Shown here: piece after piece, positions 5,880 through 14,867 of the stretch
Layout: every line of letters starts with the position of its first letter
Numbering within the stretch: the first letter of the stretch is position 1
Assembly (NCBI GenBank): GCA_965649265.1
Contig: CBFGKC010000002.1
Location: 107,100 to 171,099, forward strand
Reading direction: 5' to 3'
DNA length: 64,000 nucleotides
Source: a candidate division WOR-3 bacterium
GTDB taxonomy: Bacteria; Hydrothermota; Tepidihabitantia; B3-TA06
The notes under the pieces: generated by a model
The model's database searches: none
What the model was told of the DNA's origin: nothing
What the model saw: the letters and a program-made list of their open reading frames with translations, nothing else
Made by a program: the position numbers and the translations under genes

Positions 5880-6785
5880 TCAGCCTGCGGCAGGTTTTTC
5901 ACTTGTAACTCCGATCCTTGCAAGGATCTCTTTTGGTTTAATGCGGTTTATGGAAAACCCCAGCTCGTCGGGCGTGTAGCCGAGCGCGAGTCCCAAAAGC
6001 TGAGGGTAGTAGATAGCGGGCAGGTTGAACTCCTGCTCCATCTCTTTTTCGATTTTTTTCTGGTTCTGCTCATACATCACGTTGCAGAAAGGGCATATGA
6101 GTGCCATCGCCTCGGAACCGGTAGATTTGATGCTTGCGAGCTTGCGGCCAGCCATCGCGTATGCTATATCGACGCGAATTCCGAGTATTCCTCCTCCGCA
6201 GCAAAGCTCGCGCTCGGAGTAAGGAATACTTTTTGCACCCGTCGCGTTAATTAAATCATCGTAGACGTGCGGGTTCTCGGGGTCATCGAAATTCTCGAAA
6301 GCCTCCGAAGGCTTGAAGAAATGGCATCCGGGATGGGCGGCAATGGCAGTGGACTCGAGGTCGACCTTTATTTCACTCTTGATGCGGTCAATACCCACAT
6401 CCTCGTAAAGCACGCGAGCAAAATGACGTACGTTGACGGTTCCCTTGTATTCCAACCCCTCGGCCTTGAGAATTTTGTTGACTTCCGCGAGCTTTTCAGG
6501 CGAGTGCTTGAGCTGGTGATTGGCCTCGACTTGTGTGCCCGTGCAGGCGGTACAGAGGGTGGTCATATCAAGACCTTCTTTCTCCGCGAGCGCGAGATTG
6601 CGTGCGGCCATAACGAGTGCGGACTGCTGGCTGACGGACTTTATGGGAAATCCGCAGCAGGTAAAAGAGGGAATATCGACCAGCTCGATGCCGAAGTGTT
6701 TGGCAACGACTCGCGCGGAAATCTCGTAGTTCTGGGCACGTACAGGTACGGTACAGCCGAGATAGAGCGCCAGTTTTTTAGCCAT
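5880..6785 (-). CDS. hdrB: Heterodisulfide reductase subunit B
   Basis: Two intact CCG domains: YLGC..TCCG..CTAC and HPGC..LCCG..CPFC. Start MAKK at 6785 overlaps the hdrC stop. Confidence 0.95.
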   Translation of the reverse strand: MAKKLALYLGCTVPVRAQNYEISARVVAKHFGIELVDIPSFTCCGFPIKSVSQQSALVMAARNLALAEKEGLDMTTLCTACTGTQVEANHQLKHSPEKLAEVNKILKAEGLEYKGTVNVRHFARVLYEDVGIDRIKSEIKVDLESTAIAAHPGCHFFKPSEAFENFDDPENPHVYDDLINATGAKSIPYSERELCCGGGILGIRVDIAYAMAGRKLASIKSTGSEAMALICPFCNVMYEQNQKKIEKEMEQEFNLPAIYYPQLLGLALGYTPDELGFSINRIKPKEILARIGVTSEKPAAG

Positions 6786-7386
6786 TTGCACCCTCCTTCT
6801 CCTTTTTCCCATCGCTCGAGTATTCGTGGAGCCCAGTTGCCTGAAAGATTGCCTTGATTGGCTCGGGCGATTCTGTAAGTTCCGGAAGTCCAGCCTTTAC
6901 ACGTTTTTTGTTGGTGAAATCGTCGGCCTCGTAAAGCCTTCCGTGTCCCTGAATCAGGTCTATCTGGGCGGTGAACGCGGGATGAATGTAGCCGTTCTTT
7001 ACGGCGAGATTTTTTAAAGCGTTCATCATCTCCGTGATGCGGACGTCCTGCGGGCAGCGCTCGTGGCAGGAATAGCAGGTTGAGCAAAGCCATACAAACT
7101 CGGACTTGAGCACCTGCTCTTTCATGCCCAGGAGCGCCATGTGTATTATTCTGCGCGGGTTAAAGCTGTCGTCAGTTGCGCGAACAGGGCACGAGGCCGT
7201 GCAGGTTCCGCACGCAAAACAGCGGGTAATGAACTCGCCCGAGGGCTCGGCTAAAATCTCGTACTTGAAATTCGGATCAAGCTCTTCAAAACGCACGACC
7301 TTAGGTTCTTCGGACTTTGTGACCTCGTCAATCGCTTGCTCGGTTTGATTGGATTGTTCCGAATTGTCTTTTACTTCTTCTTCCAA
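6778..7386 (-). CDS. hdrC: Heterodisulfide reductase subunit C
   Basis: CFACGTCTASCP and WLCSTCYSCHERCP; GGAGG then TTG start at 7386. Confidence 0.93.
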   Translation of the reverse strand: MEEEVKDNSEQSNQTEQAIDEVTKSEEPKVVRFEELDPNFKYEILAEPSGEFITRCFACGTCTASCPVRATDDSFNPRRIIHMALLGMKEQVLKSEFVWLCSTCYSCHERCPQDVRITEMMNALKNLAVKNGYIHPAFTAQIDLIQGHGRLYEADDFTNKKRVKAGLPELTESPEPIKAIFQATGLHEYSSDGKKEKEGANG

Positions 7387-7477
7387 AATTCCTCCAGCAC
7401 GGCAATACGCTTGCGACAATTGCCGCAATTACACCGCATACGCAACCAGGATCTAACCGACAAAGACCTTTTTCTCA

Positions 7478-8356
7478 TCAAAACTCCTGTGGCAGTCCCT
7501 CGAGCTCGGCGAGCGCGAATACTGGACCGTCCTTGCAAACGTAGTAGGGACCAATATTACAGCGGCCGCACTTGCCTATACCGCATTTCATCCGCCGCTC
7601 GAGCGAGGTGTAAATCCGGTCATTGCCGAAGCCGAGTTTCGTGACCACAGGCAGGGTGTAACGGATCATGGCTGGCGGCCCGCACATAATAAGCAGCGCG
7701 TTATCGGGACTTGGAGCAATCTTTTCCGTAACGGTCGGTACAAATCCAACGAGGCCTTCCCAGCCGTTCGCTTCGGTATCGACAGTAAGATAAATTGAAA
7801 AATCGTCGCGTTTTCCACATTCCTCGAGTTCGGATTTGTATAAAAGCATACCGGGCGTGCGCGCGCCGTAGATTACGGTAACATCCTTGAAATCGGACCG
7901 GTGCCCGTCTATAAGGTACCTTATTACTGATCTTAGGGTCGTAAACGCGAAGCCGCCGGAAACGATTACAAGATTGGAACCCTTGAAATTTTCTAAAGGA
8001 TACCAGTTTCCGAGTGGCCCCCGCATGCCTATCGGGTCGCCCACTTCGAGCTGATGCATCGTATTAGTTACCAACCCTGCGCGATTTACAGTGAAGCGCA
8101 CATAGTCTTGCTCGGTCGGCGAGGAGGCGATGCCGAAGGGCGATTCGCCTTTGCCGAGTACCGACACCTCGCAAAACTGGCCGGGCAGGAAGCTGAAAGC
8201 CTCCTTATCCTCCTTATTGACGAACTCAAGGTCAAACGTCTTGAGCATTCCGTCTTCGGACTCTACGCGTATGTCGCGTATTTTCATAGGCATAGGAAGA
8301 TAGGGGTTTTCTCCCTTATAGTATAACTTCTCGCCCAGGGCACTAGATTTCTCCAT
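7478..8356 (-). CDS. FAD/NAD(P)-binding 2Fe-2S oxidoreductase (FlxA/AsrB/hydrogenase-gamma type)
   Basis: FLPGQF, RGPLGN, YGART, CGPPAM and SLERRMKCGIGKCGRC..VCKDGPVF. Confidence 0.92.
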   Translation of the reverse strand: MEKSSALGEKLYYKGENPYLPMPMKIRDIRVESEDGMLKTFDLEFVNKEDKEAFSFLPGQFCEVSVLGKGESPFGIASSPTEQDYVRFTVNRAGLVTNTMHQLEVGDPIGMRGPLGNWYPLENFKGSNLVIVSGGFAFTTLRSVIRYLIDGHRSDFKDVTVIYGARTPGMLLYKSELEECGKRDDFSIYLTVDTEANGWEGLVGFVPTVTEKIAPSPDNALLIMCGPPAMIRYTLPVVTKLGFGNDRIYTSLERRMKCGIGKCGRCNIGPYYVCKDGPVFALAELEGLPQEF

Positions 8357-8364
8357 TAGCCGAT

Positions 8365-8392
8365 ATTATAGGAAGATATACGTCAATGTCAA
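8365..8392 (-). promoter_or_regulatory. Sigma70-type promoter of the flxA-hdr-sulfur relay operon (near-leaderless)
   Basis: TTGACA-16-TATAAT ending 8 nt before ATG 8356; no SD. Confidence 0.8.
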
Positions 8393-8652
8393 TCTGTAAA
8401 CCCCAGAAGAATACTCAGCATTTTTTCGGAAATCCCGTGAAGTCCGGTTTAACCCGACGCGTCAAAAATGTGGATAACTAAGTGGGACAAAAGTGGGACA
8501 AAAAATTGGCAAAAAACAGGGGTAAATCGCATGTAAATTGCACATGTTAGTCAGTTAGAGGTCGAAAACCTGAACGGACGATTTTTGGGCAAAAAGGGGG
8601 GATTTTAACCCGATTTCGAGGATTCGGGCGATTGCCCCCTTCGTTCGCCCTT

Positions 8653-8843
8653 GAGATTCTCACGGACGCTGCGCGTCCTCAGAATGACAGCCTTAAAACA
8701 AACATGTCACCCTGAGGACTGACAACCGCAGGTTGGAAGGACGTGAGGGTCTCATTAGTTTGAGAGTTTTCCTTTTTTCCCGGGGATTGCTCCGTAAGCG
8801 TCGCCCTTCGGACTTTCGCTCGCTTTAGCGGCCTCAGAATGAC
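8653..8843. repeat. Palindromic repeat family GATT(C/G)C..hairpin..CTCAGAATGAC (2 copies plus inverted TGTCACCCTGAG)
   Basis: Copies at 8653-8689 and 8784-8843, inverted end at 8705-8718; related copy at 22976-23012. Confidence 0.65.
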
Positions 8844-8865
8844 GTTGTAAGTGTTAGGGGAGAGA

Positions 8866-8931
8866 TTATACGTCAAGCGTCTTCTGCTTGTCCTTGTCTT
8901 TGTTGATCTTTTCCGCCTTCTTGAAGCTCAT
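8866..8931 (-). pseudogene. Orphan second copy of the methyltransferase C-terminal tail
   Basis: Translates as MSFKKAEKINKDKDKQKTLDV*, paralogous to ITFKKAEKIVSDKKKQTNLDV* at 9142-9207. Confidence 0.8.
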
Positions 8932-8935
8932 CCAT

Positions 8936-9129
8936 CATCTCCCCCTCGACGGGGGAGAACAAAAGTGGGGGCGAGGTTTATCTTACCCCTCACCCTACCC
9001 TCTCCCGAAGGGCGAGGTAGCCTCCAGAGGAGGCATGGGCCCAACGCTCGCGTTCGGCAAACAATCTTCGATATCACCTTCTCCCTTTGGGACGAAGAGC
9101 CCTCGGGGTTGAAGGGATGGGGATGAGGG
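8936..9129. repeat. CCCTCACCC../CTCCC..GGGAG palindromic repeat cluster
   Basis: CTCCCCCTCGACGGGGGAG, CCCTCACCCTACCCTCTCCCGAAGGGCGAGG, CTTCTCCCTTTGGGA and GGGATGGGGATGAGGG. Confidence 0.6.
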
Positions 9130-9141
9130 AGATGTGGATTC

Positions 9142-9381
9142 CTATACGTCAAGATTCGTCTGCTTTTTTTTGTCAGAGACGATCTTTTCCGCCTTCTTGA
9201 ATGTGATATCGTCCGGCGCAACCTGGGGCAGTTCCAGCCGCTCGGTATGGTTGAGGAGCCCTTCGACCGTTAAGACCTGGACTTTAGGGTAATCCTTGTT
9301 CATTATCTGGGAGTGGAAAAAACTTGCTGACGCTGCTTCCGACTTAATCTCCGAGCGGTCGGTCGGCGGGTAGAGGAGATT
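9142..9381 (-). pseudogene. C-terminal fragment of a DNA methyltransferase-Mrr-type endonuclease fusion
   Basis: Open frame LYPPT..EIKSEAASASFFHS..KDYPKVQVLTVEGLL..ITFKKAEK..LDV*, recognisable as the C-terminus of N4/N6-MTase/Mrr_cat fusions. Confidence 0.8.
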
Positions 9382-9396
9382 CGTAGGGGGCGACCT

Positions 9397-9948
9397 TTAG
9401 GTCGGCCCGCCCCCCTCACGGGCAGGCCGACGTTGCATCTCCGATGTCGCTTTCGCGTCAGAACGATTCGAATATGAGTCTGTAAGGGATTCCCTGGGAC
9501 CGGAGAAGGGATATTCTTCGATGGTCCTAGATAGATTTCTGCGTACGGGGTTCGCCCAGATGTATCGTGCTACTTTTTCGATGTCTTCATCCTTCCTTAA
9601 GACATGGTCATAATAACCCCTCTGCCAAAGAGACCTTCTGTATACCTTTCTGAATCGATATGATGAGATTTGCTTGAAGGACTTCATAGTTTTGACTAAA
9701 TCACTCTTTTCCTCGCCTGCAAGGAGAAGATGAAGATGATCGGACATGAAGCAGTAAGCCAAAATGCGGAATTGCTCTCTTGAGCAAACCGGGAATAAGG
9801 ATTCTAAGACCATTTTAACCACTCGCCCATTTCTGAAAATCGGAGAGTCGTTATACGTACAGATAGTTATGGAATAAGCGTATTGACCTTTGTAGTAGAA
9901 GCAGCGAAGTCGAGAAGTTGGTTTTCGTTTAGGGAGTTCCTGTTCCAT
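9397..9948 (-). CDS. REP-associated tyrosine transposase (RAYT, IS200-like HUH/Y1)
   Basis: YSITICT, AYCFMSDHLH (HUH), LWQRGYYDH, YIWANP (catalytic Tyr) and YPFS. Confidence 0.93.
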   Translation of the reverse strand: MEQELPKRKPTSRLRCFYYKGQYAYSITICTYNDSPIFRNGRVVKMVLESLFPVCSREQFRILAYCFMSDHLHLLLAGEEKSDLVKTMKSFKQISSYRFRKVYRRSLWQRGYYDHVLRKDEDIEKVARYIWANPVRRNLSRTIEEYPFSGPRESLTDSYSNRSDAKATSEMQRRPAREGGGPT

Positions 9949-10043
9949 TCAAACATTTTCAGGCCGACCTGTCGCGCAGAGCGCAACCGAAGTTTGCGAA
10001 TGTCGGCCATGCATTTTCTTCGGGCCGACCTGAAGGTCGGCCC

Positions 10044-10601
10044 CTACGGGTTCTCCCACTTTAGAGCGTATTGTTTTACTTCGCCCGTCTCAGTGAGTTG
10101 GATATAGATGTTATGCAGATCAACATATACTGTGTCTATGGCTGTTCTGCACGTTAGGCGCAAGGAAGTATCTGGTTTTAGGTAAAATGGTGACTTTAAA
10201 AGCGTATCACCTGAAGGGTCTACCCACCCTTGATCCCATTGAGTTTTTTTCCCACTGTACAACATCAAAAAGACATCGCTTATTCCGACAGGTTTCTTGC
10301 CTTTATTCGTTATCGTGATAAGAGGGATTTTTTCAGATGAAATTAACTCGAATGTACCAACTAGTGACTTTATTCCTAGTGCTTTTCCTTCTTCAGTTAT
10401 TACGACCGAGGAAGTCTGAGGTGTGGATTTTTTTTCTTCTAATCGAACTATTAGTTTTACTTCCTCGTTTTTCTTTTCAGCATTGCATGTGTGAATATCT
10501 GCTACTAACCAAGCTATAATTGCACTAAGCAGGATGGGGATTATATAAGTCTTTACGTATATCCAGAAACTTTTGCTATGTTCCTTCCGAGATTTAGGCA
10601 T
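10044..10601 (-). CDS. AT-rich cargo gene: hypothetical protein with an N-terminal TM anchor
   Basis: 185-aa ORF exactly filling the space between two REPs; its TAG stop lies in the REP GTAG. Confidence 0.75.
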   Translation of the reverse strand: MPKSRKEHSKSFWIYVKTYIIPILLSAIIAWLVADIHTCNAEKKNEEVKLIVRLEEKKSTPQTSSVVITEEGKALGIKSLVGTFELISSEKIPLITITNKGKKPVGISDVFLMLYSGKKTQWDQGWVDPSGDTLLKSPFYLKPDTSLRLTCRTAIDTVYVDLHNIYIQLTETGEVKQYALKWENP

Positions 10602-10642
10602 TATTATGGGTCGATCAGGCCGACCTGAAGGTCGGCCCCTAC

Positions 10643-10753
10643 GGAGTTGAACGGCGGGTCGAGGTAGATGAGGTCAACGGATTCATCCGGAATCTTGTTT
10701 CACAAAACGTCAAGGTTGTCGCCGAAATAAAGCTGGTTGCGCCAGTCACCCAT
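10643..10753 (-). pseudogene. N-terminal fragment of a beta-class N4/N6 DNA methyltransferase
   Basis: MGDWRNQLYFGDNLDVL*NKIPDESVDLIYLDPPFNS contains the DPPF motif IV, has an internal TGA at 10700-10702 and is truncated at the REP. Promoter TTGACA-16-TATTAT at 10759-10786. Confidence 0.9.
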
Positions 10754-10935
10754 AGGTGATAATATCGAGTGATGTTAGGATGTCAACCCGTACCCGTAAC
10801 ACACCCGTAACTTCTTCCTTAACACACCCATCCCTCCTTTTGGGGAGGGCAAAAGACTCGAATCAGGGTAAACGCGGCTCAGGCTTGACATTTTCATATT
10901 CCGGTTCATACTTTAGTATCAAGAAAGGAGGTACC

Positions 10936-11919
10936 TTGAGGTTTTTGGTTCTATCCGCTCTCACCCTCGCGGCATTCTTCACCGCACAGGCGGGAGAGCT
11001 TAACATTGTGGAGATAAAACGGCCGCTGGACGTTGAAGAGGCAGGCCAGTACTTCAGCCCTAAATGTATCATTGAGAATGCCGGACAGAGCACCGAGATC
11101 GCGCTCGTCACGTGCCGGATCATTGACCGCCGGGACATGAGCCAGGTTTATTACGACGCGATGTCTTCGTACCCTCTCGATCCGGGTGCGACGACTATTG
11201 AGTTCGATGAGTTCGTGCCCGAAGGCGGGGGGAAGTACAACGCGAAGTTCACGGTCCAGTCCCAGTTTTCGGCCGACAGCAGGGAGAAGAACTTCTCCGC
11301 ATCGGGCTACGATATTACGCCCGTGGAACTGATATCACCTTCTGAATGGCCCATAAGCGTTTTCGATCCTGCGGCGCGATTCGAAGAAAGGGCTGGTGAG
11401 AAGATGGACTTCGCCTGGCTAAACTGCAAAATAGAGCTCATGAATGCTCTGGGTTCTCCTCTAAGCACCATATATGAAGACTCCATTAACCATACCTTTG
11501 AGCCCTATGAGGTATACACGGCGGTATTCCCTGAGGCCCAAATTCCATACCTATCGATAAAAATCACCTTCTGGGCACAAACCCAATCTCGCATGAACAT
11601 CAGTAATCCTCCGCTCGTAGTCTACTTCTCCGGGGTCGCGGAAGAGAGCGGCCCCGAATCGAATGCGGAACCGAGTCTGGTCACATCTCTAGACGGAAAC
11701 AAGGCAAGCATCCGCTTCACGCTGGCAAAGGAAGGGGAGGTCTCGCTGGATATCTACGACGTCAGCGGCAAGCGAGTGGCCGATGTTGTGGACGCGAGGC
11801 TCGGCGCAGGCGAGCATGAGGCGGCGTGGAATATCGAGGACGTTTCGAGAGGAGTCTACTTCGTAAGGCTTGCGACAGGGGAAACCGTTAAGGTCTCGAA
11901 GCTCGTTATCGGGTACTAA
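10936..11919 (+). CDS. Secreted protein with T9SS/FlgD-type C-terminal domain
   Basis: AAGGAGG then TTG 10936; signal peptide; C-terminus IYDVSGKRV..GVYFVRL..KLVI. Confidence 0.8.
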   Translation: MRFLVLSALTLAAFFTAQAGELNIVEIKRPLDVEEAGQYFSPKCIIENAGQSTEIALVTCRIIDRRDMSQVYYDAMSSYPLDPGATTIEFDEFVPEGGGKYNAKFTVQSQFSADSREKNFSASGYDITPVELISPSEWPISVFDPAARFEERAGEKMDFAWLNCKIELMNALGSPLSTIYEDSINHTFEPYEVYTAVFPEAQIPYLSIKITFWAQTQSRMNISNPPLVVYFSGVAEESGPESNAEPSLVTSLDGNKASIRFTLAKEGEVSLDIYDVSGKRVADVVDARLGAGEHEAAWNIEDVSRGVYFVRLATGETVKVSKLVIGY

Positions 11920-11941
11920 GAGAAAATTACCGACTCAAGGA

Positions 11942-11973
11942 AAGGGCTGCAGCGGCAGCCCTTCAATCTTTTT
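11942..11973 (+). terminator. Rho-independent terminator (probably bidirectional)
   Basis: AAGGGCTGC-agcg-GCAGCCCTT followed by a T-rich tract, between convergent genes. Confidence 0.7.
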
Positions 11974-12000
11974 CAGCCCGGACGATTCACGGGCGCAGCT

Positions 12001-13341
12001 TCACCCGACGTCTAATCTGGTCTTGATCCAGGGCAGAAGTCCCGAGCCCAGGTTCAACCGTTCGGTGGAGATCTCCTCGACGTTCTTTAAGAGTTCGAGC
12101 GCGTTGCCGCGAATGGCCCAGGTTCCGGGCTCGGTCGTGGCGACAATCTTGCCGTTCTCGATAACGTAGCTCACGTACGCGGTGTTGGCGAACGCACCCG
12201 TCACCCTGTCGGCGGTGTGGAGACCGAGGAGGTACTTGAGCAGAATTCCCTTCTTTACCGAGCGGATCATTTCAGGAAGTTTTGACGACCCCGGCTCCAT
12301 GACGAGCGAGCGCAGCGACGGGCGCACGGGAGCTTCGTTTGATTCCTCGGAAAGAACAGGCCTGCGCATTCCGGAGCCGGTGGACGAGGCGTTGTCGAGC
12401 ACGGCGGTCTCGGCGTCGTAGAGGAAGTTCGTGAAGACGCCCTTTTCGAACAGCGGTATGCGGCGTGAGGGGGTCCCCTCGTCGTCGGTGGGGGATGAGG
12501 AACCAAGCTCAGGGTGTGTGGCGTCGTCCGCGATGGTGACCGCAGGGGAGGCGAGCGTCTGACCCGCGCGGTACTTCGAGAGCGCCTGGAGCTTGCTTGT
12601 GGCGTAGATTTGCTCGGCGACAAGCGTGCCGAACAGCCCCTGCAGGCACATGGGGTGAAGGATCACGTCTACCGTCTGTCCCTTGACTCCGATGTCGGAA
12701 GGCTTCATTGATTTTCGAGGAAGCGATTTAGCCAGACGCGCTCCGAGGGACTCCACGTCTGCGACTTTGGGGAGTTTGATGGACGTTATGAAATCGAAAT
12801 CCCTGGAGTCCAGGTCGACGTTCACGTTGAATGCGGTCTGGTGGTTGTACGCAGGCTCGCTCGAGCGGGTGGTAAATATCCAGCTTGAGCCCGAGTACAC
12901 CGAGCCGCTGGCGTTAAGGCGCTCGAACCTTCCCTTGCCCTCGTCCCATGTACGCTTTACCATGTTTGAAAGGAGCCGCTCGAGCGCCCTGGGATTACCG
13001 ACCAGAGTAAGAAGCTCCGTATCTGCAGTGTTGCGCGTGAGGCCCGCGGGAATCACCACGAATCCCTTGAGAGCGGTGGGCACCAGATTGGAAAGCGCGG
13101 ACTCGATCACTCTTTCAATGGTTTGCGGGTCGAAGACGGTCGTCGAGGCGTAGGTCAGCTTGCCTTTCTTGATGAGCCTCAGGCCGAGCGAGGCGACCCC
13201 GACTTCGGAAGAAAGCGTCAGGTCGCGCTGCTCAATTTTGAATGATGTGGTGTCACTCACGTTAAGAATGATTTCGAAATCGTCTACCTTGAACTTCGAT
13301 GCGGCGGTCCGGATGTTTTTTATGATTTTATCGAACATCAC
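12001..13341 (-). CDS. pmbA: PmbA/TldE family metalloprotease subunit
   Basis: DDEGTP, LFEKGV..FLYD, STGSG and VTGAF; lacks HExxxH; coupled to tldD. Confidence 0.85.
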   Translation of the reverse strand: MMFDKIIKNIRTAASKFKVDDFEIILNVSDTTSFKIEQRDLTLSSEVGVASLGLRLIKKGKLTYASTTVFDPQTIERVIESALSNLVPTALKGFVVIPAGLTRNTADTELLTLVGNPRALERLLSNMVKRTWDEGKGRFERLNASGSVYSGSSWIFTTRSSEPAYNHQTAFNVNVDLDSRDFDFITSIKLPKVADVESLGARLAKSLPRKSMKPSDIGVKGQTVDVILHPMCLQGLFGTLVAEQIYATSKLQALSKYRAGQTLASPAVTIADDATHPELGSSSPTDDEGTPSRRIPLFEKGVFTNFLYDAETAVLDNASSTGSGMRRPVLSEESNEAPVRPSLRSLVMEPGSSKLPEMIRSVKKGILLKYLLGLHTADRVTGAFANTAYVSYVIENGKIVATTEPGTWAIRGNALELLKNVEEISTERLNLGSGLLPWIKTRLDVG

Positions 13342-14867
13342 GCACCTCCTTGAACCGCAAGCTGAATATATTCATTGATCTTTACACGAGTCCAGAGGGG
13401 GCCTCCGTCGCCTACAGGGCGGTGCTGGCCGTACTTGCCGCAGAAGCCAACGTCGTCGATTCGAATTTCGCCCGCGCAGGCGTCGATGTAACGAAGCGCG
13501 AACATGCTCTTTCCGGAGAAGTTCGCGGGGTTGACCGTTTTCGTGATCTTTCCTTTCTCGACGAGGTAACCCACCTGGATGGAGGAGGACATGCCGTCTT
13601 TCGAGACCGCGCCGCCGAGCGTGCCCTCGAGAATGATGCCGTAAGAGATGTCCTTGAGGAGTTCCTTGAGGTTCTTGCGAACGATTTCAGGATCCGCGGG
13701 AACCATGTACGTGTTGGACATGCGGCATATCTGCGCGTCGCCTAGCTGGGAAAACGCGCCGCCGTTAGGCTTCTTTTTGAAGTACGCCGCTGTCTCGCGG
13801 TTGTGGATGAAATCCTTGACCTTTCCCTTGATTGCAAGCATCTTGGGAAGCATTTCCACTCCTTCATCGTCTATCAGCTCGGTGCCGTAGCCCCTGTGCA
13901 TATCGGGCTTGCCGGTTTTAGGGTTGACGAGCGGGCCGTCGATGATGTGCACGGTGGGAGCCGCGACCACCCCCCGGGGGTTGCCCTTGGCGTCCGCGAC
14001 GCCCGACGTGCCGGCCTTGATGCCGTCTGCCTCGAAGTTGTGGCCGAGCGCCTCGTGAATGAACACCCCGAGCGTATTGAAGTCGAGGATAAAATGATCC
14101 ATCCTCGCGACATCCTCGGCTGAAAGCGTTACCGCATTGAGCAGATCCACGGCTTTTTGCATCCAGCTTTTTATTTCTGCCGATGCCCGGGCGTTGAGCT
14201 TGCAGCCGGTCTTGGTAATATCCAGGAGCGTCTCAAGTCCCTTGATGTCGGCTATCCTGACCCTTGTCTGGGTTGATTTGCCCTGCTTGTCGCGGAGCTT
14301 GGTATGAACCTGCAGGAACGTGCGCGGCATGCGCTGGTGCTTGCGTACACCTCTTGAATCGGCTATCAGCTTCTCCTCGTTCTGGGCGTAAAACCAGACC
14401 TCGGGGTTTATCCTGACGCCCGCGGGCGAGTGTTTTTTCTCAAAGGATGAGGCTATTGCGCGGACGCCCGAGAAAACGGCGCCGACGACCTTTTTGGGAT
14501 CGGATTTTGCGAGGTCGAATTTCGGTTTTATGGCGTAATCCTTGCGACCCGGATTAGGTATGGCGGCCAGCCTGGCCGGCACCCTGGGCTTGCGTGCAGT
14601 TCGCCACAGTCCCCTGGCGCGCTCGACGGCTGCAAGAAGAACGTCCTCTTCCAGTCCTCCGACCTTGAGAGAAACTTTCTTTCCGTCCTTGAGAAAGCGC
14701 ATCTGCACGCGGGCTTTAACGCTCAAGGGGGTGATGAACGTCTGCGAGCCTATGATCTTAGCCTCGGTTTTCTCAACCCGTTCGTAAAGGATATCGGAAT
14801 AATCGAAGAATTTTTTCGCCTGAGCGAAAGTTTTCTTGATCGCTTGCTCAACGGTTTTATGTTCCAT
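13338..14867 (-). CDS. tldD: TldD family metalloprotease
   Basis: FIHEALGHNFEAD, DDEGV, RMSNTY and GFCGKYGQ..PVGDGGP; leaderless start at 14867 (TTGACA-16-TATCAT-5nt-ATG). Confidence 0.9.
   Translation of the reverse strand: MEHKTVEQAIKKTFAQAKKFFDYSDILYERVEKTEAKIIGSQTFITPLSVKARVQMRFLKDGKKVSLKVGGLEEDVLLAAVERARGLWRTARKPRVPARLAAIPNPGRKDYAIKPKFDLAKSDPKKVVGAVFSGVRAIASSFEKKHSPAGVRINPEVWFYAQNEEKLIADSRGVRKHQRMPRTFLQVHTKLRDKQGKSTQTRVRIADIKGLETLLDITKTGCKLNARASAEIKSWMQKAVDLLNAVTLSAEDVARMDHFILDFNTLGVFIHEALGHNFEADGIKAGTSGVADAKGNPRGVVAAPTVHIIDGPLVNPKTGKPDMHRGYGTELIDDEGVEMLPKMLAIKGKVKDFIHNRETAAYFKKKPNGGAFSQLGDAQICRMSNTYMVPADPEIVRKNLKELLKDISYGIILEGTLGGAVSKDGMSSSIQVGYLVEKGKITKTVNPANFSGKSMFALRYIDACAGEIRIDDVGFCGKYGQHRPVGDGGPLWTRVKINEYIQLAVQGGA

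Follow-up and report, generated by a model that had tools for sequence, protein, structure and literature searches.

Candidate REP-bounded gene cassettes and a variable gene slot beside a RAYT in a candidate division WOR-3 bacterium

We analyzed a 64,000-nucleotide stretch of DNA (the window, whose positions are used below) from a candidate division WOR-3 bacterium, taken from contig CBFGKC010000002.1 of assembly GCA_965649265.1. In this window, the gene of a REP-associated tyrosine transposase (RAYT) sits inside a dead DNA methylase gene, next to a small foreign open reading frame (ORF) that is framed by two identical repetitive extragenic palindromic sequences (REPs). The anatomy of the locus, the origin of both methylase fragments from one gene, the variable gene slot in related genomes and the REP-to-REP borders of cassettes were all confirmed. 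Across all the mechanisms that we weighed, REP-bounded single-gene cassettes are probably real in this bacterial family. Our best explanation, which we hold with slightly more doubt than confidence, is a REPtron (a RAYT gene between inverted REPs) in the dead methylase gene, with a cassette slot at the 5′ REP of the RAYT and the RAYT as the most economical catalyst.

A RAYT gene and a small ORF inside a dead methylase gene

On the minus strand, the elements follow one another in the order originally predicted, namely, a promoter-like site, an N-terminal methylase stump, a first REP (REP3), a 185-amino-acid ORF (hereafter the cargo), a second REP (REP2), the RAYT gene, an inverted REP (REP1), and a C-terminal methylase fragment. 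The stump (10643..10753, codons 1-37, MGDWRNQLYFGDNLDVL*NKIPDESVDLIYLDPPFNS) ends with ..IYLDPPFNS and directly abuts the GTAG head of REP3 (10618..10642, minus strand), which carries an 8-9 bp GC hairpin with a DNA fold of -10 kcal/mol (z -2.9). The AT-rich cargo ORF (10044..10601, minus strand, GC 0.39) runs into REP2 (10023..10047, minus strand), the 5′ REP of the RAYT unit. REP3 is a direct copy of REP2, as had been claimed: the two are identical over 25 of 25 nt and over 29 of 30 nt with their flanks, and this 25-mer has 3 matches in the window versus 0 in 100 shuffles. The cargo begins 16 nt past REP3 rather than the 15 nt first given, and, in agreement with the original prediction, no Shine-Dalgarno (SD) sequence (no GGAGG) and no promoter-like site precede it there. 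It does take its TAG stop from the GTAG of REP2, yet such stops are already described as common for GTAG-headed REPs in the available text of PMC3733652.

The promoter-like site, TTGACA-16-TATTAT (10786..10759, minus strand), is predicted from consensus alone, with 11 of 12 consensus matches. It ranks first among 4 promoter-like sites in 8800-11000, ends 6 nt before the ATG of the stump, and aligns with the same motif in front of both intact and split methylase copies of relatives. In a sequence scan, the stretch from this site to the cargo ORF and on to the RAYT was free of further promoter-like sites and of terminator-like sites, and the two genes may plausibly be co-transcribed from it.

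The enzyme is a true RAYT, as predicted. It matches Pfam Y1_Tnp (3.4e-16) and the curated NCBIfam model NF047646, REP_Tyr_transpos, at 112.4 bits (cut-off 80), and stays under the threshold of the IS200 model NF033573 (39.2 bits versus 55). Its alignment to Escherichia coli TnpAREP (PDB 4ER8, E 2.7e-7) keeps the HUH and tyrosine motifs in register, with HLH of ..SDHLHLLL.. over HMH and ..ARYIWANPV.. over ..DYIYINPV.. in the reference. The intact gene (9397..9948, minus strand, 183 aa) is flanked by inverted, GTAG-headed REPs of a type that is also scattered through the genome; its 3′ REP, REP1 (9383..9407, plus strand, 2 mismatches), forms with REP2 an inverted repeat of 28 nt that is 93% complementary. 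Between REP2 and the RAYT start stands a long REP-like hairpin, GGCCGAC-N33-GTCGGCC (9962..10008, minus strand; -25.4 kcal/mol and z -3.4 for the fold of 9950-10055), and a homologous hairpin precedes the RAYT of G002:C17. By tblastn, the RAYT is single copy in the genome that holds the window (G000; 2.74 Mb, 51% GC), where a 26%-identical Y1 gene lies on C5, and it is the only REP-specific enzyme gene seen there. By every sequence criterion that we applied, the window unit belongs to the RAYT/REP family.

Both methylase pieces derive from one gene, as had been proposed, since they align to a single intact 503-aa protein of the sister species G001 (G001:C23): the stump to residues 1-37 at 94.6% identity and the C-terminal fragment (9142..9381, minus strand, ..LLYPPTDRSEIK..TNLDV*) to residues 426-503 at 87%. 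This intact allele, of the kind that the original prediction suggested seeking in relatives, encodes an N6_N4_Mtase domain joined to Mrr_cat (PF01555, 4.6e-51; PF04471, 5.6e-6), and further intact copies are found at G003:C6 and G006:C18. Given the residues matched, about 388 codons of the window gene have been replaced; moreover, an in-frame TGA at codon 18 (10702..10700) makes the N-terminal fragment a pseudogene stump. The idea that the insertion itself recently removed most of the gene is not borne out by this comparison. The split is old, as it is shared across genera with the same N-terminal junction, and that junction falls on a native GGCCGAC microhomology, the AGGCCGAC of the intact gene, which presents the same 7 nt as the left arm of the REP.

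We searched 61 related genomes, about 8 of which were inspected closely, with many loci chosen because they hold REPs. RAYT homologs were found in 32 of the 61. Reading those matches that have stops inside as pseudogenes proved mostly wrong: the ORFs of the relatives end about 20 codons before the extended tail of the G000 gene. The same methylase split recurs in four other assemblies (G003, G009, G006, and G001) and on a 210-kb metagenome contig, L092, one of 80 loci retained out of 537 RAYT matches. At G003:C27, the slot is without cargo (stump, REP, RAYT, tail). At G009:C41, the stump is followed by a half REP (GTAGGGGCCGAC), a 252-aa HNH_2 gene ending in ..NP and TAG, a REP, the RAYT, an inverted REP, and the tail; this locus adjoins a cyclophilin gene, where G003:C6 and G006:C18 have their intact methylases. 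L092 shows the architecture of the window with another gene (stump, REP, 232-aa ORF, REP, RAYT, inverted REP, tail). At G001:C87, a stump of about 85 codons precedes a 146-aa ORF that reads through a REP, then the first RAYT codons and the contig end, and at G006:C40, a remnant of the RAYT 3′ flank is all that stands between stump and tail, the RAYT having been lost by deletion between two GGCCGAC motifs. Counting the window, five loci combine stump and RAYT; the slot is empty in one and filled in four, with a full REP on each side of the cargo in two independent assemblies (G000 and L092). No similarity was detected among the slot cargos, the G009/L092 pair being left out of this comparison. 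Orthologous or paralogous alleles with another cargo or none at the same slot, which the original prediction proposed as a check, are thus available.

At G006:C32 and G002:C17, where the RAYT lies outside a methylase, a co-directional AT-rich ORF likewise stands just upstream of it. The notion that such ORFs are a conserved partner of the RAYT was dropped because five of them share no mutual similarity, and a conserved GATAATG motif after the REP, considered as the source of cargo start codons, was rejected as too short and variable. Right after the methylase tail of L092 (3926-4621), a 231-aa AT-rich ORF is followed by the GTAG hairpin (4618) of a different REP family.

The window cargo belongs to an orphan family. 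It has no Pfam, PADLOC, or NCBIfam family match, and its homologs form only 2 other clusters among 5.8 billion proteins, unnamed or auto-named in the Atlas; G000 has no second copy. The C-terminal half is strongly conserved among these relatives, which end with ..W(E/D)-stop, and the window copy extends two codons (N-P) beyond this end, into the TAG of REP2. A weak AlphaFold model (predicted local distance difference test [pLDDT] 64.8) suggests an N-terminal membrane helix and a beta-sandwich, and a Foldseek comparison of this model with the PDB gave nothing at E<=0.001, just generic beta-sandwich rows.

In comparison with G001, the locus is part of a 3.6-kb block (8380..12020) comprising the methylase remnants, the RAYT and REPs, the cargo, and a gene with a type IX secretion system sorting tail (about 10936-11919, plus strand). 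The syntenic G001:C65 matches window 6000-8380 and 12020-14000 only, with about 535 bp in place of the block. A second methylase-tail remnant of 59 nt (8867..8925, minus strand, residues ~483-503), 81% identical to 9143..9201, is the scar of an earlier rearrangement, and G003:C27 has a comparable second tail downstream of its split copy. An Rfam scan of 8000-12100 at E<=0.1 gave no matches. Two other repeats were noticed nearby. Tandem GTGTTACGGG(G) arrays, with 18 sites genome-wide in G000, adjoin several REP cassettes and lie upstream of the methylase promoter (window 10794-10839, G000:C7:150440-150520, and G000:C7:105900-105945). A dispersed intergenic element consists of GGACAAAAG-type iterons beside a perfect TTATCCACA (DnaA-box-like) motif (window ~8450-8500, minus strand; G000:C7:150190-150290; G000:C6:21240-21330), and its 20-mer iteron pattern has 55 sites in G000 at <=3 mismatches.

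REP-bounded cassettes at other sites

The REP 25-mer has 16 matches in G000 at <=3 mismatches and 0 for the reversed control. Curation, which left out opposite-strand readings of the same palindrome and GTAG hairpins with unrelated stems, gave 27 REPs, 22 of them short and 5 long with a nested hairpin. These REPs tend to lie by AT-rich DNA: 12 of the 27 have a 300-bp flank with GC<0.40, compared to about 7% expected (binomial 8e-8), and 13 of the 27 lie <=120 bp from the edge of an AT-rich islet (at least 350 bp with GC<0.41 in 200-bp windows), as against 1.3 under random placement (no more than 6 in any of 2000 trials). For five other intergenic repeat families, just 14 of 114 sites reach an islet edge (Fisher 1e-4 versus REPs), and in G001, the link to AT-rich DNA holds for 7 of 14 REPs. 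The islets of G000 number 252 and total 148 kb, or 5.4% of the genome, and many are single orphan ORFs.

Three further inverted REP pairs with heads outward, like the RAYT pair, each enclose one AT-rich ORF (C6 21762/22587, C7 105126/105878, and C7 151115/151648, with ORFs of 247, 209, and 146 aa, respectively), and two short inverted REP doublets were found at C14 36643/36708 and C19 30228/30324. Five more single REPs adjoin AT-rich ORFs, two of which extend into the REP and terminate within its loop. With some 27 copies and three extra pairs around single ORFs, the REP is low-copy and tends to bracket single ORFs, the outcome under which the original prediction was to stand. The 11 REP-associated ORFs of G000 show no mutual similarity, no match at the Pfam cut-off, and no convincing PADLOC match. 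In G003, an array at G003:C42 (L040 1902-5180) consists of a 280-aa AT-rich ORF, a REP, a hicA/hicB-like pair, a REP, and a 277-aa AT-rich ORF, and on L093 (1003-1503), a 166-aa ORF is 69% identical to a REP-adjacent ORF of G003:C33.

The family of the 209-aa ORF, C7_209, offers the clearest view of cassette borders. It has 5 copies in 4 of the 61 genomes, plus a decayed copy in G001, and the five copies are built alike: a 5′ REP in the same orientation, of the long form in G000 and G003, is followed by an SD and the ORF, and an inverted REP closes the unit at its 3′ end. In a five-way DNA alignment, homology extends from ..CGTAGGGGCC (GTAG) to GGCCCCTACG, at or just past CTAC. Beyond these ends, the flanking DNA is unrelated among three or more contexts: the copies of G000 and G008 lie at the same site, by RlmN/permease genes, whereas G003:C38, G006:C57, and G006:C65 differ. 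G006 holds two diverged copies, one of them behind a second REP-headed ORF. The REP-ORF-REP unit thus behaves as a cassette, as had been anticipated, recurring at different chromosomal sites with homology that ends at the REPs.

Genes of the methylase slot have relatives in such settings as well. The slot gene of L092 is a full-length homolog (36% aa identity, E 1e-41) of C11_239, which in G000 occupies a different site, about 10 nt behind a same-orientation REP, and a paralog of the 146-aa ORF from the G001 slot lies between inverted REPs on G001:C84. The C11 site carries REP doublets or a single REP and no cargo in G006 and G003, and REPs mark the RlmN/permease site in genera g1 and g3; at these shared sites, the REPs appear to predate the cargo. 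At G006:C68 (L062 986-1276), two REPIN-like REP doublets with 17-nt spacers occupy the site of the G000 C11_239 cassette (a REPIN being an inverted REP pair).

The C7_209 protein (G000:C7:105214-105843, equal to L172 1501-2130; homologs L173-L176) has D116, E133, and K135 invariant in 4 sequences. Its predicted structure (pLDDT 69.5, pTM 0.70) finds BamHI as the best VIA-align match, at a moderate Z of 9.0 (root mean square deviation 3.9, 150 of 209 residues), with Foldseek returning nothing at E<=0.001, and nearly all top structural rows are PD-(D/E)XK restriction enzymes (BamHI, OkrAI, and BstYI, Z 9.0-7.1). Judged by this model, the protein resembles a stand-alone nuclease of the restriction-enzyme kind, and no methylase lies beside it. 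Cassettes might then spread by nuclease-driven homing, in which selfish endonuclease cargos would cut the palindromes of REPs or REPINs and be copied in by repair, with non-nuclease cargos hitchhiking or arriving otherwise. It is the best-documented mobile cassette that carries the invariant D..E-x-K and the BamHI-best model, the slot cargo of G009 is an HNH_2 endonuclease, and the palindromic stems of REPs are of the sort that type II enzymes usually target. Homing nevertheless seems improbable to us: the structural match is no better than moderate, the window cargo is modeled as a membrane-anchored beta-sandwich protein and not as a nuclease, and most other cargos are without a nuclease signature.

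Possible routes of cassette exchange

We infer the direction of events, a crossover between REPs, the RAYT as the enzyme, and co-transcription as parts of a single scheme. The locus would be the only REPtron of the genome, a RAYT between inverted GTAG REPs in a long-dead N6/N4-methylase-Mrr gene whose promoter would still point into it, and the 185-aa ORF would belong to a larger set of AT-rich accessory genes, acquired horizontally and, in this bacterial family, carried as REP-bounded cassettes of one gene each. The slot would correspond to the space from the methylase stump to the RAYT 5′ REP. A cassette would enter by REP x REP recombination at this 5′ REP, so that a REP frames it at either end (as in G000 and L092), and would leave by REP x REP deletion, giving an empty slot (as in G003). 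The RAYT may cut and rejoin REP hairpins in single-stranded DNA, in trans, and is the obvious candidate for this role; TnpAREP is reported to cleave and rejoin REPs in the available text of PMC6006769, in which the words "cargo" and "passenger" do not occur. The old methylase promoter would drive transcription of both cargo and RAYT. From the sequences at hand, such an integron-like RAYT mechanism is plausible. The more far-reaching proposal, that a domesticated RAYT runs a cassette system with REP hairpins as single-strand attachment sites, gene-carrying REPINs, and an HUH-based integron-like platform on a captured methylase promoter, we consider unlikely.

The original prediction further held that the system targets restriction-modification (R-M) loci. 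This is unsupported because the middle of the same methylase has also been swapped for REP-free DNA in two relatives, and other cassettes lie between housekeeping genes. At G002:C77 (L035 1920-4990), residues 4-39 are followed by 2.6 kb of AT-rich DNA and then residues 392-503; the insert is an R-M-like gene set that counts among its members a PD-(D/E)XK-like ORF and a fragment of a DPPY methylase on the opposite strand. At G001:C79 (L029 1975-5189), the middle is replaced by AT-rich DNA with break points at residues 113 and 294. The methylase would therefore not be the target; the conserved ends of this multi-copy gene look like homology arms, through which any insert, RAYT module included, may replace a copy. 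The mutated junction ..PPFID|GTAG, common to the two different loci G003:C27 and L092, fits the spread of the whole split allele by homologous recombination.

These REP-free replacements weigh against RAYT-driven exchange, as do several other observations. The left REP is just a half in G009, and G001:C87 has no left REP and a longer stump. Many cassettes have inverted rather than direct REPs, a geometry not predicted by simple one-strand REP-to-REP excision. No cassette is duplicated within G000, and the closest within-genome pairs are old (70% mean column identity in G006 and 72% in G001). The G000 island with C7_146 is a 2.3-kb repeat mosaic whose indel borders relative to G001 lie off the REPs. 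Some homologs of the cargos have no REPs beside them (for cargoA in L091, for cargoC in G019, and for the C11_239 family in G002:C67); the L091 gene, the sole other genomic homolog found for the window cargo, lies in an AT-rich islet with its own SD, a TAA stop, and different neighbors. Only 10 of the 252 AT-rich islets of G000 touch a REP, and G003 (genus g3) shows no enrichment of REPs by AT-rich DNA (4 of 28, p 0.34). The genome set includes metagenome assemblies, which, together with the small number of genomes inspected closely, we also count on this side.

A serious rival is that host processes exchange the cassettes, be it by recombination, template switching, or homologous replacement following DNA uptake, with REP hairpins acting as short homologies or replication-stalling sites and the RAYT as a bystander that owns the REPs. 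The junctions do fall on GGCCGAC/GGGC microhomologies, including the one that the intact methylase natively has at the break, and the RAYT deletion of G006:C40 runs between two such motifs. Half REPs stand at the junctions in G009:C41 and G003:C6, the REP-free replacement in G002:C77 uses nearly the same break points (those of G001:C79 being elsewhere), and the shared ..PPFID|GTAG junction fits whole-allele spread. A REP of 25-30 nt is, however, short for RecA-type recombination, and the C7_209 borders, placed at the outer GTAG/CTAC of complete REPs in five copies, look site-specific rather than like a scatter of microhomologies. Furthermore, the slot adjoins the RAYT in each genome examined, and we regard the bystander scenario as fairly unlikely, if one to be taken seriously.

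It could also be that the REPs came later and never moved genes, simply because REPs or REPINs prefer AT-rich, easily melted, recently acquired DNA or permissive intergenic hot spots. Such a preference would agree with the 242 islets that are without a REP, with the REP-free homologs listed above, and with the intergenic regions of G000, which are mosaics of several repeat families, although these other families lie at islet edges four times less often than REPs do. The site after a ComM/YifB-like gene is also in line with it. In G000, a 277-aa GAF-like AT-rich ORF (G000:C13:19396-20229), whose start overlaps the stop of that gene, ends inside a REP, and at the same site in G001:C40 (L056 3123-4286), an unrelated-looking 387-aa AT-rich ORF has no REP; this ComM-adjacent site is a replaceable tail position in an operon. 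Late arrival of the REPs is nonetheless hard to reconcile with C7_209, which keeps its REP-SD-ORF-REP package at different sites, with the long-form 5′ REP in both G000 and G003, or with the C11 site of g3, where REPs stand without cargo. The 5′ REP of the RAYT, moreover, must predate the four different cargos in front of it. We give this scenario little credence.

Relation to known systems

Among known systems, the closest likeness is to REPtrons, such as E. coli TnpAREP with its REPs and bacterial interspersed mosaic elements or the Pseudomonas RAYTs with their REPINs. The window unit shares with them a single-copy Y1 HUH gene, inverted GTAG hairpins that flank it, and the dispersal of these hairpins in intergenic DNA, some as inverted doublets. 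The differences are that inverted pairs here enclose ORFs of 450-750 bp and that a variable gene slot adjoins the RAYT. Described REPINs are short, non-coding, and present in tens to hundreds of copies, whereas G000 has about 27 REPs, half of them at AT-rich gene edges. The inverted REP pair that defines a REPIN is present, but the short non-coding spacer is absent from the three pairs with ORFs and seen only in the C14 and C19 doublets, and in place of many near-identical copies, each cargo is single-copy in G000. The available text of PMC3390384 reports the opposite trend in Pseudomonas, where REP deserts coincide with atypical DNA. In the main texts of the open literature that were accessible, we came across neither REPINs that carry genes nor a cassette slot adjoining a RAYT. 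PMC2884548, taken up as a precedent for genes "flanked by REP", was rejected, as its actual phrase is "flanked by repeats".

The layout also resembles that of an integron. Different promoterless single-gene cassettes share a fixed insertion point by a recombinase gene (four cargos and one empty slot over five loci), a folded palindrome ends each cassette and would, by analogy, work as single-stranded DNA, an upstream promoter-like site faces the cassette, and trimming around the ORF is tight. In contrast, the enzyme is a Y1 HUH nuclease and not an integrase-family tyrosine recombinase, and the sites are perfect GTAG hairpins of 25-30 nt and not attC, as judged by the general features of attC rather than a model. 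The slot holds one cassette with no long arrays, the nearest case being the ORF, REP, hicAB-like, REP, ORF series of G003:C42, and many cassettes lie away from the enzyme gene, with inverted ends. Within the block, which is as far as the search for IntI went, no recombinase-like gene other than the RAYT is present. Despite the integron-like layout, membership among integrons fails because the block has no IntI and no attC.

Other HUH enzymes, those of the insertion sequences (ISs) of the IS200/IS605 group with their palindrome-associated transposable elements and of the IS common region (ISCR)/IS91 group, act on hairpin-marked single-stranded DNA ends; they can mobilize non-autonomous units in trans, and ISCR captures neighboring genes. 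Here, in contrast, the RAYT falls under the IS200 cut-off, the unit of RAYT and cargo is single-copy, the cassette ends are REPs that belong to the host-wide REP population, and no Y2 rolling-circle enzyme is present.

In marine picocyanobacteria, TnpAREP lies beside small variable procA genes, and transposase-driven diversifying recombination has been proposed; in a later note, the authors report having found strong evidence neither for a causal link nor against one (Laurenceau et al., bioRxiv 10.1101/2020.03.09.984088, in its available text). That case differs in its RAYT subclass, its many copies and fragments, and its single gene family in place of unrelated cargos, and no REP-bounded cassettes are described in the same text. 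REPs are also landing sites for ISs (Tobes and Pareja 2006, PMC1525189, in its available text); the incomers there are autonomous ISs with transposases, whereas those described here are single accessory genes without a recognizable transposase.

The system is directly testable, given a short defined REP, a small intact RAYT, and the availability of both empty and filled alleles. The methylase-Mrr gene with its swappable middle makes a separate and simpler point on the turnover of R-M genes. RAYTs and REPINs are usually viewed as a closed, vertically inherited, and non-coding partnership. If true, gene-carrying REP units and a variable slot beside a RAYT would assign REP/RAYT systems a definite part in gene flow and would constitute a second, mechanistically unrelated route to integron-like cassette capture.

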